A DNA stretch of 64,000 nucleotides from an uncultured Rhizobium sp. GTDB lineage: Bacteria > Bacteroidota > Bacteroidia > NS11-12g > UBA955. Every line of letters starts with the position of its first letter. Position 1 is the stretch's first letter. The notes below the pieces were generated by a model that had not been told where the DNA came from, did not search any database, and saw only the letters and a program-made list of their open reading frames with translations. The position numbers and the translations under genes are program-made. Location: assembly GCA_964527775.1 (NCBI GenBank), contig CAZGQS010000002.1, positions 105,701 to 169,700 of the forward strand. Direction: 5' to 3'. Of the stretch, positions 3,797 through 47,034 are shown piece after piece.

Positions 3797-4793
3797 TCAG
3801 TTCTTACTCTTAAGGAGTCCCCGAAAAAGTAGTAAAGGCGTACTTGATTATTACTCAGGATCATTGGTTGATTGGGATGGTAAAAGGAATGAACATGAAG
3901 CAAAAGCACTAATAAAGCCTTGGAACGGAGAGAAAATTAGAACTTTTAAAGATGGTGGTGTTGAAATCTCAGGTGATGAATTAAAGAAGAAATTGGGTGA
4001 TATGGAGATTCAACTTTCTGAATTAGTGGAAAGCTCAACGTGGTTACATTTTTCAGAGCAAGTTGAGAAGATCAAAGAAGGTATTTTGCAGAATAAGTTT
4101 CAGAAGGTGGTGTTGAGTAGGGTGAAATGGGTTGAATTTCAGAGTTTGTTATCAGTTGATTCATTGTTGCAGATTTTTAAAAATGCTTGTGATACCTATG
4201 TAAATAGCTTGGTTTATTTGTTTTGTACAAAAGAACACGGTATTTGGATGGGAGCTTCACCGGAAATTTTGGTTGAAATTGAAGCAGATGAAATGCGCAC
4301 CATGAGTTTGGCGGGTACTTTATTTAATCAAGAAGAAATATGGTCAGATAAGGAGGAGCGGGAGCAGTCAGTTACGGCTTTGCATATTTCAGAAACATTA
4401 AATTCTTTGGGCCTAAAAGAGCATAAATCTGAAGTTGAAGAAATTACAAATGGAAGCATCAGACATTTAGTTCAGTATCATCAGGCTAATATTCAAGGTA
4501 TAGATTTAGGACAATTAATATCTAGGCTGCATCCTACGCCAGCGGTTGCGGGATATCCGATAAACGATTCGGTTCAAATGATTGAAGAATTGGAGCTGCA
4601 TCAAAGAGAATTATATACTGGTTTTATAGGTGATACTCAAGAGGTATATGTGAATTTGCGTTGTGCGCAAATTTTCAAAAATGGAATTAAATTGTTTTCG
4701 GGATGCGGCATCAATTCACAGAGTGATTCTGAGCGAGAATGGCAGGAAACCGAATTGAAAATGAGGGTTATAGGTGACTTATTCGTCGTCTGA
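3789..4793 (+). CDS. menF: Isochorismate synthase
   Basis: Chorismate-binding motifs MSLAGT, LHPTPAVAGYP, RELYTGFIG and LRCAQI. Confidence 0.85.
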   Translation: MDNQFLLLRSPRKSSKGVLDYYSGSLVDWDGKRNEHEAKALIKPWNGEKIRTFKDGGVEISGDELKKKLGDMEIQLSELVESSTWLHFSEQVEKIKEGILQNKFQKVVLSRVKWVEFQSLLSVDSLLQIFKNACDTYVNSLVYLFCTKEHGIWMGASPEILVEIEADEMRTMSLAGTLFNQEEIWSDKEEREQSVTALHISETLNSLGLKEHKSEVEEITNGSIRHLVQYHQANIQGIDLGQLISRLHPTPAVAGYPINDSVQMIEELELHQRELYTGFIGDTQEVYVNLRCAQIFKNGIKLFSGCGINSQSDSEREWQETELKMRVIGDLFVV

Positions 4794-7022: not shown

Positions 7023-7703
7023 ATGATTCTCGTGATTGAGTCCTCGGCTGATTACCCATCGGTTTGTTTAACGGACGAACAAGGTAATTTGTTGTGGAGC
7101 GAAACGGTTTTTGTGAAGCAATCGCATTCTGAGCAACTCCCATTGTTGGTGGAGAAAGCGTTTTTAAAGTTGAGGGGTGAGGGTGGAGAGTTGAGAGCGG
7201 TGGCGGTGAATGAAGGTCCGGGCAGTTATACGGGTTTGAGGATAGGGGTGAGTTTGGCAAAAGGAATTTGCTATTCCATGGGATGTAAACTATTGTCAAT
7301 TAATGGATTGGTTGCAATGTCGGAGTGGGCCATTGATCAAAGATATTTAGGTGAGGGTTCAGTTTGCGCCATGCTTGATGCACGTAGAGATGAGGTTTAT
7401 ATTGCCATTTTAGATTATCAAGGGGAGGTTATAAAAGAGGTTGAGGCTTTGGTTTTAACCGAAGGATGTTTAGATGGACTGATAGATTTAAATGCTACAG
7501 TGTTCATTGGAAATAGCGGAGAAAAGGCACAAAGATTATTGTCTGCACCTGAAGCGAAAATCATTGATGGACCCGAAGCTCATATGTTTGCAAAGAAAGC
7601 TGCCCAGAAATTTAGGAATGGTGAATTTGAAGATGTTGCTTATTTCGAACCCCATTATTTAAAGGAATTTATTGCAGGGATATCTCAAAAATTTTCGGTT
7701 TGA
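7023..7703 (+). CDS. tsaB: tRNA t6A37 threonylcarbamoyl transfer protein TsaB
   Basis: MILVIESSADYPSVCL...NEGPGSYTGLRIGVSLAKG is the TsaB/YeaZ signature. Confidence 0.88.
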   Translation: MILVIESSADYPSVCLTDEQGNLLWSETVFVKQSHSEQLPLLVEKAFLKLRGEGGELRAVAVNEGPGSYTGLRIGVSLAKGICYSMGCKLLSINGLVAMSEWAIDQRYLGEGSVCAMLDARRDEVYIAILDYQGEVIKEVEALVLTEGCLDGLIDLNATVFIGNSGEKAQRLLSAPEAKIIDGPEAHMFAKKAAQKFRNGEFEDVAYFEPHYLKEFIAGISQKFSV

Positions 7704-8314: not shown

Positions 8315-10050
8315 AGTTCGGCAATACTGCCATGCGCAGGGAAATGATCTTGTATACCTAGATGGTGAAATCTAGGATTCAATGGGTTAGACGGATTGTT
8401 GTCCCATTTTTCCCATAAATATTTAAAATATTGACCAAATCCTCCAATGATGCTACCGTCTTCAATAGTTATGCAATGTTGGTAGTTCTTTTTTTGAATA
8501 AAAGGAACCTCTGTAGCGTGTTTCACCGCTGGAAAGTGAATGAGATCTACATGGTTGAACAATTCAGGTTTTTTCTCTAGAGCGGTTATAGCCAATTGTG
8601 TGGCAATACCCGTGGTACTAATTAAAATCTTTGGATTGCTTGATTGGTGGATGATTTTTGGCTCAGTTGGGTTGGCAAGAAGTTTATTTTGAGCTTGAAT
8701 TGGTGTTTCACCTCTAGGGTATCTAATGAAAACAGGATGGTTTTGTTCAAGAGCCCAATGCATCATGTTTCTAAGTTCTGATGATTGATAGGGTGCGAGT
8801 ATAGTTATATTGGGCAGAGGCAGAAGAAAAGATAAATCAAAACTTCCGTGGTGTGTTGGGCCATCCTCGCCAACGAGTCCTGCACGGTCAATGCAAAAAA
8901 CCACGGGCAGGTTTTGTAGTACCACATCGTGGATGATTTGATCATAAGCGCGTTGCAGAAAAGTGCTGTAGATATTGACAACTACTTTTTTGCCTCCTGC
9001 GGCTATTCCCGCGGCAAAAGTGACTGCATGTTGTTCGGAAATCCCCACATCAAAAAATCGATCTGGATATTTTTCCAAAGTTGGCAACATGCCACATGAG
9101 CTAGGCATGGCAGGTGTAACTCCCCGTAACTCTTGATTGCTGTTTGCCAATTCGAGCAGGGTTTCACCAAAAATGTCTTGCCATTTGGCCATTGGTCTTT
9201 GGTCTTTGGTCTTTGGTTCTTGGTCTTTGGGGGATGGGTGATCAACTTTGATGTATTTGGCGGCGCTATGCCAGCGGGTTTGTTCCTTCTCTGCGGGTTC
9301 ATATCCTTTCCCTTTTATAGTTTGAATATGAATTAGATGAGGTTTGTTCTGGGAAATGGCTTCTTTCAATGTTTTCTTAAGGACTCCAATATCATGTCCA
9401 TCAAAAGGTCCATGATAAATAAATCCAAACCATTCAAAAAATTCTCTGATCTGTTTAGGATGTTTATTTTTTTGTAGGTGAACCAAATGTTTATTCAATG
9501 CACCGGTATTGGGATCAATACCCATTTGGTTGTCATTGAGAATTACAACCAAAGGATAATTCAAATCAATCATGTTGTTCATAGCCTCATAGGCCATGCC
9601 ACCGGTGAGAGCTCCATCGCCAATGATGGCGAATACTGGAGGTCTAGTTTGATTGTATTTTAGGGCTTCTGCAAATCCTACAGCAGCAGAAAGCGCGGTA
9701 GATGAATGTCCGGTCCCAAACCAATCAAATGGAGATTCGCTTCTTTTGGGAAAGCCCGAAATGCCGTTTTTATTTCTAATGTTTTTAATTTCATCACCAC
9801 GGCCAGTCAGAACTTTATAGGGATATGATTGGTGCCCAACATCCCAAATTACTGGGGAAAATTCAGGGTCAATTTCTGACAGGAGAGCCACTGTCAATTC
9901 TATGACGCCAAGGTTTGCTGCAAAGTGACCGCCATTTTCAAGAATGGTATTTATGAGGAAATTTCTTAATTCTGCCGCAACCAAAATTAGTTCTCCCACA
10001 GGCATATTGCGCAGTTCTTGATATTGGCTATACTTTGAAGGAAGCGGCAT
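8245..10050 (-). CDS. dxs: 1-deoxy-D-xylulose-5-phosphate synthase
   Basis: GGHFAANLGVIELTVAL, WDVGHQSYPYKVLTGR and IGDGALTGGMAYEAMNN (TPP motif). Full length at 601 aa. The interdomain linker is encoded by heptamer repeats (see the repeat feature). Confidence 0.95.
   Translation of the reverse strand: MPLPSKYSQYQELRNMPVGELILVAAELRNFLINTILENGGHFAANLGVIELTVALLSEIDPEFSPVIWDVGHQSYPYKVLTGRGDEIKNIRNKNGISGFPKRSESPFDWFGTGHSSTALSAAVGFAEALKYNQTRPPVFAIIGDGALTGGMAYEAMNNMIDLNYPLVVILNDNQMGIDPNTGALNKHLVHLQKNKHPKQIREFFEWFGFIYHGPFDGHDIGVLKKTLKEAISQNKPHLIHIQTIKGKGYEPAEKEQTRWHSAAKYIKVDHPSPKDQEPKTKDQRPMAKWQDIFGETLLELANSNQELRGVTPAMPSSCGMLPTLEKYPDRFFDVGISEQHAVTFAAGIAAGGKKVVVNIYSTFLQRAYDQIIHDVVLQNLPVVFCIDRAGLVGEDGPTHHGSFDLSFLLPLPNITILAPYQSSELRNMMHWALEQNHPVFIRYPRGETPIQAQNKLLANPTEPKIIHQSSNPKILISTTGIATQLAITALEKKPELFNHVDLIHFPAVKHATEVPFIQKKNYQHCITIEDGSIIGGFGQYFKYLWEKWDNNPSNPLNPRFHHLGIQDHFPAHGSIAELQEDEGFDVDSILTKLNQLLINS
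9192..9230 (-). repeat. GACCAAR heptanucleotide tandem repeat (5.5 units, 39 nt) inside the dxs reading frame
   Basis: Plus strand reads TTGGTCT TTGGTCT TTGGTCT TTGGTTC TTGGTCT TTGG, which is the reverse complement of the GACCAAR units. It is translated within PKDQEPKTKDQRP. The unit family is the same as at 38941-39003. Confidence 0.9.
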
Positions 10051-37713: not shown

Positions 37714-38229
37714 ATGATAAGAGTAGGAATAATCATGGGTTCTGATAGTGATCTTCCGGTAATGAAGGAAGCAACCACTATTTTAAATCAAATGGGAGTT
37801 GAAACCGAAACCACCATTGTTTCAGCGCACAGAACACCCGAACGTTTGTTTGAATATGCTGAGCATGCGGCAGATCGCGGCATTTGTGTAATCATAGCTG
37901 GAGCTGGTGGTGCTGCACACTTACCTGGTATGGTTGCTTCTATGACCCATTTGCCAGTTATTGGTGTTCCAGTTCAATCAAAAACCATGAGCGGTATTGA
38001 CAGCTTATATTCCATTGTTCAGATGCCTCCTGGTGTTCCTGTGGCAACGGTTGCCATCAATGGCGCTAGAAACGCCGGTATACTAGCTGCCCAAATTTTA
38101 GGTATCTACGACGAAGAAATTGCTGATAAGGTGATTTCTTTCAAGAAGGACATGGAATCTGAGGTGCTTGAAAAGGCCAAGCGATTGGAAGATTTGGGTC
38201 CTGAAAAGTACTTAAATTCACATTCATGA
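37714..38229 (+). CDS. purE: 5-(carboxyamino)imidazole ribonucleotide mutase
   Basis: [38 protein letters not shown] and VIGVPV. Confidence 0.95.
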
Positions 38230-38798
38230 TCATTGTTGGCGAAGCCCTACTTTCAGAAGACATTCTAGATAAACAATTTGTTTGTCAATTAGACCAGTGC
38301 AAGGGGGCTTGTTGTATTGAAGGGGACGCTGGAGCGCCGCTGCTTCACTCAGAACTTGAAACCATAGAACAGGTACTTCCCACTGTAAAAAAATACATGC
38401 GAACAGACGCATTAGAATACTTGGCAGAAAAAGGATTTCACACTCGTGACCCTGACGGCGAATTGGTTACAGAGTGTCAAAAGTCGGGCGAATGTGTTTT
38501 TGTGCAATACGATGACAAGGGCATTGCCAAATGCAGTTTTGAGATGGCCTATGAAGCGGGTGAAACTGATTTCAAGAAACCCATCAGTTGTCATTTGTAC
38601 CCAATTAGGGCAAAGCGTTACGGAAATTACACGGCTTTAAATTACCACAAGTGGGACATTTGCAACCCTGCATGTAAAGCGGGATCAGAGTTAAACGTGC
38701 GGGTATTTGAATTTTTAAAGGAGCCTTTAATTCGCAAGATGGGTGCTGAATGGTACCAAGAATTGGAGGAGGTTAGTAAGGCGTGGGATGGTAAATAG
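38226..38798 (+). CDS. DUF3109 family Cys-rich protein
   Basis: [22 protein letters not shown]...CHLYPIR...CNPAC is the pattern I associate with DUF3109. It overlaps the purE stop by 4 nt. Confidence 0.7.
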
Positions 38799-38803
38799 GT
38801 TGT

Positions 38804-38901
38804 CGGTGATCGGTGATCGGTGATCAGCCGTCAGCCGTCAGCTCTCAGCTTTCGGCTTTCAGCTATCAGCGGACAGCCGTCAGCCATCAGCTTTCAGCAG
38901 C
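38804..38901. repeat. Heptanucleotide tandem array: (CGGTGAT)x3 followed by 11 CAGCYNT-type units
   Basis: 14 consecutive 7-nt units in one phase: CGGTGAT x3, CAGCCGT x2, CAGCTCT, CAGCTTT, CGGCTTT, CAGCTAT, CAGCGGA, CAGCCGT, CAGCCAT, CAGCTTT, CAGCAGC. Confidence 0.95.
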
Positions 38902-38940
38902 GCCGAGGGCGCCAAGCAACAGCGAAGCTGTTCAGCTCCC

Positions 38941-39003
38941 GACCAAGGACCAAAGACCAAGGACCAAGGACCAAGGACCAAAGACCAAAGACCAAAGACC
39001 AAG
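38941..39003. repeat. Heptanucleotide tandem array (GACCAAR)x9
   Basis: Units in order: GACCAAG, GACCAAA, GACCAAG x3, GACCAAA x3, GACCAAG. The array ends 3 nt before the stop codon of the UbiA-family gene. Confidence 0.95.
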
Positions 39004-39006
39004 TAA

Positions 39007-39864
39007 TTAACTGATTAAACTCGCAAGAAGGCCAATAAACATGGAGTATTTGAGCCAATTTGAAATGTGGCTGTAATGCGGTTTTTCAAGAGCCGCGTAG
39101 ATTTTATAGAGTAGGTATAAATGTAAGGGTGTGAGTACCGCAAAGAGGAATATCCAATATTCTAGTTGATTGCCTGTGGCTCCAATCAAGATGAGGAGGG
39201 CTAAGCTACAGAGAATGAAGATGGATGCAAGTATTTTGGTTTTGGTGGGCCCGCTGCTGATGGCGAAGGTTTCGTAGCCATGTTCCTTATCGCCGGCGTA
39301 GTCTTCGAGGTCTTTGATGAGTTCGCGGGCAAAGGTTATGAAGAAGGCTATGCTTGAGAATTCGGCGAAATAGGCCTTGTTTACCAAGAAAACACCTCTA
39401 GAGGCAATGTAAACCACCATTCCTGCCATCAATGAAATGAGGAGGTTTCCCATGAGGAATTCCGATTTAAAGTCGCTGGAATAAAAATAGAGAAGAATGG
39501 CTATGACGGTTGACAAAATGCCCATTCCAAGTCCGGTAATGAAGCCCATGCTGATTCCGGTAAATGTGAGAATCAGATAATACATTTTCATGGATTTTAC
39601 GGATGTGCTTTCAACGGCGATGCGCTTTCCAGGCCTATTGATTTTGTCAGTTTCTACATCGAAGATGTCATTGATTACATATCCCCCGGCGGCAACAAGA
39701 ACGCAGGCCAAAGTGGCGGTGATGCTTTCGGGGAAGCGGAGATTTGAAAAGTCAATGAAACTCAGTCCGGGATTGATGCGAGAGGCCGACAAATAGAAAA
39801 GCCACTGAGTGAGGATAGTCAGCAGGAGGTTGATGGGGCGAATGATTCTCAAATAATGAATCAT
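39007..39864 (-). CDS. UbiA family prenyltransferase
   Basis: NDIFDVETDKINRP (NDxxDxxxD), a second Asp-rich region KDLEDYAGDKEHG, and about 8 TM helices. Confidence 0.85.
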   Translation of the reverse strand: MIHYLRIIRPINLLLTILTQWLFYLSASRINPGLSFIDFSNLRFPESITATLACVLVAAGGYVINDIFDVETDKINRPGKRIAVESTSVKSMKMYYLILTFTGISMGFITGLGMGILSTVIAILLYFYSSDFKSEFLMGNLLISLMAGMVVYIASRGVFLVNKAYFAEFSSIAFFITFARELIKDLEDYAGDKEHGYETFAISSGPTKTKILASIFILCSLALLILIGATGNQLEYWIFLFAVLTPLHLYLLYKIYAALEKPHYSHISNWLKYSMFIGLLASLIS

Positions 39865-40863: not shown

Positions 40864-40899
40864 AAACGAAAAGAGGCCGCCCTTTTAAGGCAGCCTCTT
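40864..40899 (-). terminator. Rho-independent terminator after groEL
   Basis: Stem AAGAGGC (40871-40877) pairs with GCCTCTT (40893-40899), plus 3 inner GC pairs. On the minus strand TTCGTTT follows. Confidence 0.75.
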
Positions 40900-40921: not shown

Positions 40922-42568
<1,647 letters not shown>

Positions 42569-45027: not shown

Positions 45028-45792
45028 TTAATCAATAATTTCTTTTACTACCTTCAGAAATTCTTCGGGATTGTCAGCATGCACCCAATGCCCAGCCTTG
45101 CTGATGGTATGGTATGTTGAATGGGGGAAATGCTCTTCTATGAAAGGTTTGTCAGTTTCTTTGAGGTACCCGCTTTTTTCTCCCAAAATGAAATGGGTTT
45201 CTTTGTCGAAAACATTTTGAAAATTCAGTCCGCCAATGATTTCATAATAATGATTTTCAATGGCTTCAATATTGATTTTTAGCTGGTACCCTCCTTCAGG
45301 GTTAGCTTCCAGATTTTTCAATAAAAATTGCCTCACTCCCATAATAGGTGCATACGGTAGGAATGCATCGTCGGCCTCTTTTCGAGATTGGATTTTGCTA
45401 AAGTCGATGCTCTTAAATGCTTGAATGTATTCAAGATGTCCGGCGTGATAGGCTTTGGGAGCAATGTCAACCACCAACAGTTTTTTTACTTTTTGGGGAT
45501 GTTGATCTGCGAAAAGCATGGCAGTTTTTCCACCCATTGAGTGGGCCAATATGTAGGTCTCATCAATGTTGAATTGAATCATCAGCTGGTTCAAATCGTT
45601 GGCCATTGCTTGATAAGAGCAATCAGCATCATGAAATGATTTGCCGTGATTACGGGCATCGTACGTTATAACCTTGTATTTTTCTGACAAGGCTTTAGCG
45701 GTTAAATGCCAATTATCGAGCATGCCAAATACCCCGTGTAAAATGATCACGGTTTCATGATGCTGTTCGCCGTATACTTTTGAGTTAAGCAT
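45028..45792 (-). CDS. Alpha/beta hydrolase
   Basis: ILHGVFG (oxyanion), the nucleophile elbow AHSMGG, and the C-terminal GHWVHADNP (His). Confidence 0.85.
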   Translation of the reverse strand: MLNSKVYGEQHHETVIILHGVFGMLDNWHLTAKALSEKYKVITYDARNHGKSFHDADCSYQAMANDLNQLMIQFNIDETYILAHSMGGKTAMLFADQHPQKVKKLLVVDIAPKAYHAGHLEYIQAFKSIDFSKIQSRKEADDAFLPYAPIMGVRQFLLKNLEANPEGGYQLKINIEAIENHYYEIIGGLNFQNVFDKETHFILGEKSGYLKETDKPFIEEHFPHSTYHTISKAGHWVHADNPEEFLKVVKEIID

Positions 45793-45805
45793 TTGTCTTG
45801 TTTAA

Positions 45806-45924
45806 CGGTGATCGGTGATCGGTGGTCGGTGGTCAGCCGTCGGCTTTAGGGTGCAGGCTGTCAGCTGTATGCTATTCGCTTTGGTCTGATAACCGATAAC
45901 CGATCACCGATCACCGATCACTGA
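45806..45924. repeat. Heptanucleotide composite repeat with inverted arms (17 phase-locked units, long hairpin)
   Basis: Units in order: CGGTGAT x2, CGGTGGT x2, CAGCCGT, CGGCTTT, AGGGTGC, AGGCTGT, CAGCTGT, ATGCTAT, TCGCTTT, GGTCTGA, TAACCGA x2, TCACCGA x2, TCACTGA. The right arm is the reverse complement of the left arm (about 26 of 28 positions pair, counting G.U). Confidence 0.92.
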
Positions 45925-47034
45925 TTACAACACCTCGCTAACAGGCGTGTAAGGAAGGTTGAATGCTTGGCTAACGCCTTCGTATACTACTTTGCCTTCA
46001 ACAACGTTGAGTCCTAGGCGGAGGTCAGCGCTGTCAGCGCAAGCTTGTTTCCATCCTTTGTTTGCCAATTGAATGGCGTAGGGAAGGGTTGCGTTTGTTA
46101 GGGCAAGGGTTGATGTATATGGAACTGCGCCAGGCATGTTTGCTACACAGTAGTGAACTACACCGTCAACCACGTAGGTTGGTTCAGCGTGAGTGGTTGG
46201 TTTTGAGGTTTCAAAGCATCCTCCTTGGTCAATGGCAACGTCAACAATGACAGAGCCAGGGCGCATGGTTGATAGCATGTCTTTGGTGATTAATTTTGGA
46301 GCTTTTGCACCTGGAATCAATACGCCACCAATGACTAGATCTGCGGTTTTTACAGCTTCGCGAATGTTATAATCATTGCTGTATTGTGTTTTTACGTTTG
46401 CAGGCATGATATCGTCAAGTTGACGTAAACGGTTAAGGCTAAGATCCATGATGGTTACATCTGCGCCAAGGCCTGCGGCCATCTTTGCAGCTTGAGTTCC
46501 AACTACCCCACCTCCTAAAACTACCACATTTGCAGGTTTAACACCAGGTACGCCACCCAAAAGGATACCGCGTCCGCCCATAGGTTTTTCAAGGTATTTT
46601 GCGCCTTCTTGGATACTCATACGACCAGCAACTTCACTCATTGGAATCAACAAGGGTAAGGTTCTGTTCACTTCAACGGTTTCATAAGCCAAGCAGATGG
46701 CTCCGCTTTTGATCATTGCGTGGGTCAAAGGCTCGTAAGATGCGAAATGGAAATACGTGAACAATAATTGTCCGGCACGAATCAAAGAATATTCCAATTC
46801 AATGGGTTCTTTAACCTTAACAATCATTTCGGCGATGCCGTACACTTCCTCAATGGTTGGGAGTAGGTTAGCCCCGGCTTTGGTGTATTCCTCGTCAGAG
46901 AAACCACTGCCTAATCCGGCGGTTGATTGAACATAAACTTTGTGTCCATGTTTTACAAATTCACTTACTCCAGCAGGAGTTACTGCAACGCGGTTTTCGT
47001 TGTTCTTGATTTCTTTAGGTACCCCGATTATCAT
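45925..47034 (-). CDS. ald: Alanine dehydrogenase
   Basis: [23 protein letters not shown] and [22 protein letters not shown] (NAD). Full AlaDH-like sequence. ATG 47034 is chosen because ATG 47055 lies inside the -7 box. Confidence 0.93.

Follow-up and report, generated by a model that had tools for sequence, protein, structure and literature searches.

Heptanucleotides are the most abundant class of long simple-sequence repeats (long SSRs) in most genomes according to Mrazek (2007) as cited in two later papers, with polymerase slippage offered as the explanation (PMC4679880, PMC4692102), and heptamer SSRs sit 0-50 bp from stop codons (PMC4679880, PMC4692102). Here we describe a modular heptamer element, W1, which lies between two convergent genes, encoding a PF11307/DUF3109 protein and a UbiA-family protein, in a stretch of 64,000 nucleotides from contig CAZGQS010000002.1 (positions 105,701 to 169,700 of the forward strand; hereafter the window), together with related elements in the window and in other genomes. 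On balance, W1 is best read as one member of a self-renewing heptanucleotide satellite of the STRR or long-SSR kind, dispersed and hypervariable, which settles at the 3' ends of genes and forms hairpins.

In Xanthomonas (GGGAATC) and Nostoc (GGGGAYT), about 90% of the heptamers were found by Rehm et al. (2015) to be intergenic and mostly 0-50 bp from a stop codon; they often form inverted pairs and vary in length and sequence among close relatives, while the locus is kept (PMC4692102, where the STRR family is also mentioned). TAACTGA repeats were reported by MacGregor (2015) from Beggiatoaceae, Cyanobacteria and five Bacteroidetes; together with other heptamer direct repeats they fill intergenic regions of Gramella, Aequorivita and Elizabethkingia, and repeats of this type are absent from the closest relatives of the Bacteroidetes carriers and cause contigs to break within them (PMC4679880). 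In Geobacter metallireducens an element of four GGACCGG units, present at 49 loci between and within genes, is annotated as putative regulatory RNA (PMC2700814). Heptamer repeats are reported to be bound by CspB, each unit taking up one protein, and for TAACTGA a model with a binding protein has been put forward (PMC4679880); in Nostoc a heptamer-binding partner has been proposed, with experiments on function limited to reporter effects (bioRxiv 10.1101/2022.06.06.494920).

The window family resembles STRR in its composite arrays of several unit types and, as far as three loci in 64 kb and at least five in the Bacteroidia genome JAMNXP01 show, in the dispersal of its tandem 7-nt units, and the likeness to these cyanobacterial repeats drawn in an earlier note on this DNA is apt. 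The STRR units, reportedly described by Mazel et al. in 1990 as CCCCAGT, TTGGTCA (STRR2) and CAACAGT, are not the CGGTGAT, CAGCYNT and GACCAAR of the window, with one near-match: read on the other strand GACCAAR becomes YTTGGTC, which agrees with STRR2 at 6/7 positions. The hosts of STRR are heterocystous cyanobacteria, whereas the window belongs to Bacteroidota, with its nearest named homologues from metagenome-assembled genomes (MAGs) of Bacteroidetes/Bacteroidia, and we know of no STRR described as having its modules in a conserved order around a central mini-hairpin. The heptamers of Xanthomonas and Nostoc resemble the window family in being dispersed, stop-proximal, often paired in inverted orientation and variable among relatives, but their G-rich units form G-quadruplexes, whereas the window units have no G-runs and their arrays pair with each other by Watson-Crick and G.U pairs. 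The Geobacter element likewise consists of multicopy tandem heptamers, with a fixed four units in place of the long, variable, modular arrays seen here.

The REP/BIME, ERIC and Correia elements are dispersed modular hairpin repeats in intercistronic positions or 3' untranslated regions (UTRs), which can protect 3' ends and are dispensable at each locus; they have a palindromic unit of 20-150 nt (about 35 nt in REP/BIME) and are mobilised by RAYT or other transposases. The window family is built of 7-nt arrays instead of a palindromic unit, and no link to a transposase was seen, no RAYT-directed search having been made. The TAACTGA family is alike in its intergenic arrays in Bacteroidetes, its absence from closest relatives and its contig breaks; it differs in its unit and in that its Beggiatoaceae sets stand just upstream of start codons, whereas the window family stands mostly at stops, and neither module order nor arm switching is reported by MacGregor (2015). 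Assemblages of this kind are seen in an Aequorivita MAG (L104), where two composites of 350-800 nt (209-1010 and 4242-4599), each with at least five different heptamer units, agree with the published remark on this genus (PMC4679880). The view that no equivalent family had been described in Bacteroidota is corrected by the same report of heptamers in Gramella, Aequorivita and Elizabethkingia (PMC4679880).

W1 belongs to a known kind of bacterial repeat, but the cited papers mention neither a conserved order of modules nor a GCGAAGC core nor a series of switching arms. No paper in the searched literature names CGGTGAT, GGTGATC or GATCACC as a repeat unit. The Rfam covariance models gave no match in the whole window at gathering thresholds and only chance-level matches across 38700-39100 at E <= 1; with no tRNA or tmRNA genes found either, a known RNA family was rejected for W1.

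Anatomy and dispersal of the heptamer family

W1 occupies the 208-nt gap between the stop codons of the DUF3109 gene (38798) and the UbiA-family gene (39007), and its coordinates, unit arrays and two stem-loops had been given correctly to the base (Table 1). Eight of the eleven CAGCYNT-type units match the consensus, the deviants being CGGCTTT, CAGCGGA and CAGCAGC, and the core of 39 nt between the left array and the GACCAAR array holds both small hairpins. TGA occurs in each frame of (CGGTGAT)n, and likewise when CAGCYNT is read on the opposite strand; GACCAAR is open in all frames of both strands. Tandem Repeats Finder recovered the arrays of W1 and placed the two recurrences claimed earlier (45806-45924, and 9192-9230 in dxs), which are real, at 45806-45925 and 9184-9230. 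The 64-kb window holds three loci of the family: W1, a second element, W2, at the junction of the genes for alanine dehydrogenase (ald) and an alpha/beta hydrolase, and an in-frame array in dxs. The same units and junction (..GGTGRTCAGCSSTC..) recur within the window, and the junction GGTGRTCAGCCGTCRGC is common to W1 and W2.

The repeat signal stands well above chance. Period 7 gave 129 stretches with at least 22/28 self-matches and period 9 gave 10, while the remaining periods from 3 to 12 gave not a single one, and period 7 is the sole strongly enriched period in the window. In comparison with dinucleotide-preserving shuffles, two-unit patterns were found 9 times for CGGTGAT (0.22 expected), 15 times for GACCAAR (2.0 expected) and 8 times for CAGCYNT (0.6 expected). 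As in long SSRs, the tandem unit falls in the 5-11 nt range and the arrays are longer than chance would give. W1 is not an assembly artefact: the window organism was also assembled independently (L003, ERZ28594040), and that assembly has an identical element. Among the short-read contigs of the window organism at the DUF3109|UbiA site, six of seven end within W1, and breaks in heptamer arrays are seen in L001, L002, L004, L005 and L006 (window positions 38832 and 38973); contigs of relatives (L254, L255 and L258) begin within such arrays. Since contigs end or start inside the arrays, heptamer elements are probably under-counted in MAGs.

An exact scan for (CGGTGAT)x3 over 185,579 species genomes returned at least 115 stretches. 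Among the matches listed they come from many phyla, several assemblies have 3-5 loci each, an inverted partner of the same unit lies within 300 nt at only 12 of 115 loci, and the Bacteroidia MAG JAMNXP01 has at least five loci. This MAG (GC content 41-43%) is not the window organism, since blastn matches between them are limited to the repeats. Three of its loci (L057, L064 and L121) repeat the module order of W1, from a CGGTGAT array through a CAGCNNT array and a centre to a GACCAAR array, the centre being a GC mini-hairpin whose loop is GAA (GCGAAGC, GGCGAAGCC) or else an inverted pair of GAGAGTT/CTCTMCM-type arrays. The genes flanking these three elements are unrelated to those flanking the window elements, and orthology of L057 and L064 to the window loci was rejected by tblastn; the module grammar is thus found again at loci that are not orthologous. 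Four of the five modular elements contain GCGAAGC, in 5 copies, together about 1 kb, against 7 copies in the whole window with both strands counted. The dispersed family proposed in the earlier note in place of one local slippage event is borne out by the recurrence of units and junction in the window, by the module order in JAMNXP01 and by a site that is empty in relatives, as set out below.

Turnover at orthologous sites

Orthologous DUF3109|UbiA loci were found by a metagenome scan with the DUF3109 protein. In L132, L133 and L134 (93% DUF3109 identity) the element is absent and the convergent genes overlap by a few bases. In L131 (97% DUF3109 identity) an element stands at the same site and shares the outer modules of W1, the left one being TGGTGAT CGGTGAT CTGTGAT and the right one (AAAGACC)x6; its interior is unlike that of W1 and is composed of (TTTAGAG/TGTAGAG)x4, a loop and (TCTCAAC)x3. 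The DUF3109 frame of L131 enters the array and ends at the TGA of a CGGTGAT unit (L131 1650-1658); in the Bacteroidota loci L074, L085, L108 and L116 the stop codon is likewise part of the first array unit or overlaps it. Between the filled and the empty site about 20-35 nt are replaced, including the ancestral C-terminal tail of DUF3109, which was exchanged upon arrival of the element, and no target-site duplication was found in this comparison. Gain, loss and cassette turnover are demonstrated here, and with them that an element can arise where no spacer existed.

At the ald|hydrolase junction, synteny is kept across the relatives L253-L258. In L256 and L257 (hydrolase 68% identical) the junction carries a canonical terminator, GGGGAAAG..CTTTTCCCC followed by a T-run. 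L258 (hydrolase 85% identical) has a long rod, in which (GGGTAYC)n pairs with (GGTACCW)n, at -101 kcal/mol. In L254 and L255 (hydrolase 90% identical) the contigs start inside an (ACGGCTG/AAAGCTG)n arm, the arm type being (TCAGCYR)n/(RCTGAAN)n, and L253, whose flanks are 99.8% and 98.5% identical to those of the window, forms a hairpin with arms of (TCAGCYR)x9 and (RCTGAAN)x5; in the window itself the W2 arms are (CGGTGAT)n and (ATCACCG)n. From the terminator of L256/L257 and the rods of L258, L253-L255 and the window it follows that three heptamer unit types succeed one another at this junction, the two arms switching jointly and the hairpin potential being retained. Each of the L253-L258 versions is self-complementary internally and bordered by the correct genes. 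The co-variation of the arms may have been caused by template switching or ectopic conversion. In the window the hydrolase ATG lies 13 nt beyond W2, a spacing that leaves no space for a promoter of its own between hairpin and ATG.

The linker encoded by the array in dxs corresponds in alignment to the DPSSGCLPKSSGGLPS stretch of 2o1s, a solved enzyme of the E. coli type. A Dxs with 96% identity (P0001) has a linker 21 residues longer, which corresponds to 63 nt or nine heptamers in frame (a protein-level comparison only). PKDQ-type linkers are found in Dxs relatives down to 74% identity and not in more distant Dxs. These comparisons establish that the number of array units can change by slipped-strand mispairing, and the slippage hotspot suggested earlier is confirmed; unit counts at orthologous loci of close relatives, a comparison that had been called for, differ between the window and L131, and in L253 the arms are different.

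Gene-end position, folding and further arrays

All five modular elements have a stop codon 0-5 nt upstream of their YTTGGTC end, so that the YUUGGUC..AUCACCG RNA is always 3' UTR. This strand folds into one rod in each of the five, with z-scores of -2.7 to -4.4, in which the YUUGGUC array pairs with the AUCACCG and ANRGCUG arrays via G.U wobble; the opposite strand gives -1.0 to -1.9, with the exception of L121 (-4.0). Not too much should be made of this asymmetry in view of W2 and L253, whose non-transcribed strand gives the better fold. The RNA of W2 forms a single long hairpin with z-scores of -8.7 and -8.8 on its two strands. The strongly negative values of many elements are partly trivial because of the UGAUCG wobble palindrome within CGGTGAT, which is itself moderately self-complementary (12th percentile). 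Of the gene ends that lie no more than 30 nt from an array at low-GC loci, 19 are stops and 6 are starts.

Table 1. Positions of the heptamer elements, their modules and the adjoining genes in the window
Feature	Position	Strand	Remark
W1, whole modular heptamer element	38799..39006		Spans the gap between convergent stop codons
(CGGTGAT)x3 module of W1	38804..38824	+	Tandem Repeats Finder; sense strand with TGA in 3/3 frames
Eleven CAGCYNT-type units of W1	38825..38901	+	7-nt phase shared with (CGGTGAT)x3
Small GC hairpin of W1, GCGCC-GAG-GGCGC	38900..38912
Small hairpin of W1, AACAGC-GAA-GCTGTT	38918..38932		GCGAAGC core at 38922-38928, found again in other family members
(GACCAAR)x9 module of W1	38941..39003	+	Tandem Repeats Finder; open in every frame, both strands
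PF11307/DUF3109 gene	38226..38798	+
UbiA-family gene	39007..39864	-	Stop codon 3 nt from the (YTTGGTC) end of W1
W2, second element, long imperfect hairpin	45793..45924		Between ald stop and hydrolase start
W2 left arm: CGGTGAT x2, CGGTGGT x2, CAGCCGT, CGGCTTT	45806..45847	+
W2 right arm: five inverted CGGTGAT-type units	45889..45923	-	+ strand reads ATAACCG/ATCACCG
Alanine dehydrogenase gene (ald)	45925..47034	-	Stop codon adjoins W2
Alpha/beta hydrolase gene	45028..45792	-
In-frame (GACCAAR)-type array in dxs, about six units	9184..9230	-	Encodes PKDQEPKTKDQRP, variable linker of Dxs

Several other identities were considered for W1 and rejected. The open reading frames (ORFs) of 64-65 amino acids across W1 are mere translations of the arrays and do not indicate a small protein. 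By eye, CsrA sites were rejected, GGA being present only in the AAGGACC variant and absent from the AAAGACC-rich copies, as were Hfq sites, for which there is no (ARN)n register. A CRISPR array needs repeats of 24-48 nt with unique spacers, whereas the units here are 7 nt long, joined head to tail and without spacers.

Two minor periodic signals of the window belong elsewhere. The period-9 signal includes a 9-nt tandem repeat, (CATTCCGCC)x3.7 at 40928-40960, which is the C-terminal GGM repeat of GroEL (ORF 40922-42562, - strand) and an ordinary feature. A weak period-7 signal at 7163-7197 in ORF 7023-7703 (AGTTGAG GGGTGAG GGTGGAG AGTTGAG; Tandem Repeats Finder score 32) has units like those of the GAGAGTT-type arrays in the interiors of L121 and L131, and could be due to chance or to an in-frame array that has decayed.

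About 97 different heptamer units build arrays in the sampled loci. Quasi-palindromic units as drivers of hairpin expansion were rejected, since the self-complementarity of the 97 units does not exceed that of GC-matched random heptamers (median percentile 0.58). GGTGATC is the exact complement of the 3' end of 16S rRNA, GAUCACC. This complementarity was rejected as the cause of CGGTGAT arrays in many phyla by a control with scrambled heptamers of the same composition, which form x3 arrays in viral contigs in 3 and 11 stretches against 9 for CGGTGAT; as the controls are about equally frequent, CGGTGAT is not special in viral contigs. The orientation of the arrays relative to transcription is not uniform, which also counts against the 16S idea. 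One of the scrambled controls, TGGACGT, forms dispersed x3 arrays in viral contigs L214-L224, several per contig (e.g. IMGVR_UViG_3300042474_001676), and is probably another real heptamer family.

Further arrays were met in other viral contigs and MAGs. A recurrent region of high-GC viral contigs (L226, L228, L236-L239, L241, L242, L248-L250 and L252) carries (GGACCAA)n after short CTCGCGA-type repeats and resembles a phage gene, in which the arrays may be in frame. Inverted pairs of GACCAAR-type arrays, e.g. (GTCCTTG)n...(GGACCAA)n, occur in the phage contigs L227, L232 and L243/L245, following a TAA in L227 and L232 and soon followed by an ATG in L232 and L243, the same hairpin habit beyond Bacteroidota. 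A higher-order repeat of about 130-150 nt in four tandem copies lies at 23-529 of L073 (a Bacteroidaceae MAG), each copy consisting of a CGGTRAN-type heptamer array and then the constant block ATGTGCATTCCA.TAATCTGTGTAATCTGTGTAATCTGTGGCG. Two low-GC MAG loci, L129 (2962-4274) and L047 (1620-5729), have several heptamer arrays within very long ORFs (2.9 kb), which may be further in-frame arrays of large proteins.

Interpretation and rival explanations

On the favoured reading of a dispersed satellite, family members follow the plan 5'-(CGGTGAT)n-(CAGCNNT)n-[centre]-(GACCAAR)n-3', with a GC mini-hairpin with GAA loop or an inverted heptamer array pair as the centre. The number of units shifts by slipped-strand mispairing, and elements are gained at sites formerly without a spacer. 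Arms and interiors may be swapped when the template is switched from one arm to the other, and through ectopic conversion among the dispersed arrays. The partly complementary arrays are predicted to fold the transcript into a long rod-like hairpin directly after the stop codon, and this rod would take the position of the ordinary terminator or 3'-end hairpin of relatives. From the position at gene ends and the outgroup terminator at the same site we infer that the probable role of the element is that of a barrier or spacer, itself dispensable, at the 3' end of a transcript or between cistrons.

The comparison with an intrinsic terminator sets limits on that role. The elements present a GC-rich stem-loop and, as in a terminator, the hairpin comes straight after the stop, at a site where L256/L257 have a real one; their stems are, unlike those of a terminator, much longer, imperfect, repetitive and without a U-run. 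The sequences after the stems are GTTAAACAAG and GACAACCTAT. Since no U-run stands behind the heptamer hairpins, a canonical terminator is excluded for W1 and W2, and the terminator role suggested in the earlier note falls in its canonical form.

Several observations weigh against the satellite reading with its 3'-end role. No U-run was found 3' of the heptamer hairpins, a terminator scan of W1 and W2 gave nothing beyond one weak 6-bp match, and the window organism does have canonical terminators, with a strong one at 40871-40899 just downstream of GroEL. The + strand of W1 folds no better than shuffles (z = -1.05), and for W2 and L253 the antisense strand gives the better fold of the two, a result that speaks against selection on sense RNA. 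The relatives whose DUF3109|UbiA site is empty manage without the element, and an array is tolerated within the coding region of dxs. The ald|hydrolase series comes from short-read assemblies through repeats (L253-L258), some details of which may be misassembled, and the co-variation of its arms could stem from template switching alone, without selection.

A possible but less probable explanation is that the elements are neutral or selfish simple-sequence DNA that expands by slippage where this is harmless, in 3' intergenic regions and disordered linkers, with hairpins as a by-product of template switching and with no role in the cell. The empty orthologous site with overlapping genes in relatives of 93% identity, the in-frame dxs linker whose encoded length varies among close relatives, the fast turnover of interiors and arms and the scrambled heptamers that form viral-contig arrays about as often are all consistent with it, as is the slippage explanation of Mrazek as cited in PMC4679880. 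Neutral expansion accounts less readily for a junction at which three unit types interchange with hairpin potential kept and an outgroup has a terminator, for a module order conserved at non-orthologous loci and for the enrichment of the GCGAAGC mini-hairpin in the family; the strong bias of arrays towards positions abutting stop codons also speaks against it, though purifying selection alone could yield such a bias.

Two further explanations were weighed. That they are non-autonomous mobile elements of the kind of REP/BIME or of miniature inverted-repeat transposable elements (MITEs), with a transposase encoded elsewhere, is very improbable: the insertion-like presence and absence at the DUF3109|UbiA site, the module order kept at unrelated loci, the inverted terminal arrays of W2 and an intergenic, stop-proximal, hairpin-forming habit like that of REP/BIME are what such an element would show, but filled and empty sites reveal neither a target-site duplication nor any fixed terminal sequence beyond the arrays, the copies have ragged ends and variable unit numbers, and no transposase was identified, no systematic search for one having been made. 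W1 in particular is bounded by one kind of array on the left and another on the right and lacks a terminal inverted repeat, and with no target-site duplication either it was rejected as a MITE. It is improbable, too, that the arrays form a multi-site platform on which a sequence-specific DNA- or RNA-binding protein (a cold-shock protein, one with an S1-type oligonucleotide/oligosaccharide-binding fold, or a nucleoid protein) sits once per 7-nt unit, giving a regulon-like or chromosome-organising network. Identical units at many loci and across genomes would fit such a platform, as would the binding of CspB to heptamers, the TAACTGA model (PMC4679880) and the proposed Nostoc partner (bioRxiv 10.1101/2022.06.06.494920); a specific binder would not tolerate the switch of unit type at one locus between near-identical strains, the sampled arrays are formed by about 97 different units, and linkage to the elements points to no candidate gene.

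A bolder reading, which we regard as improbable, is that heptamer-array hairpins are a widespread, cross-phylum class of renewable 3'-end elements with a dedicated repeat-writing or copying activity or a specific reader protein, replacing ordinary terminators in the lineages that have them. If this were true, dedicated machinery would install matched arrays on both arms, and the arm switching at the ald|hydrolase junction would be its footprint and not the result of passive slippage. For MAGs the breaking of short-read assemblies by heptamer elements is a practical concern. The two sites provide a natural experiment, with one junction that has a terminator in one lineage and three heptamer hairpins in others, and a second that is either empty or filled, and these contrasts make it directly testable whether the elements are surrogate terminators or stabilisers, or junk.

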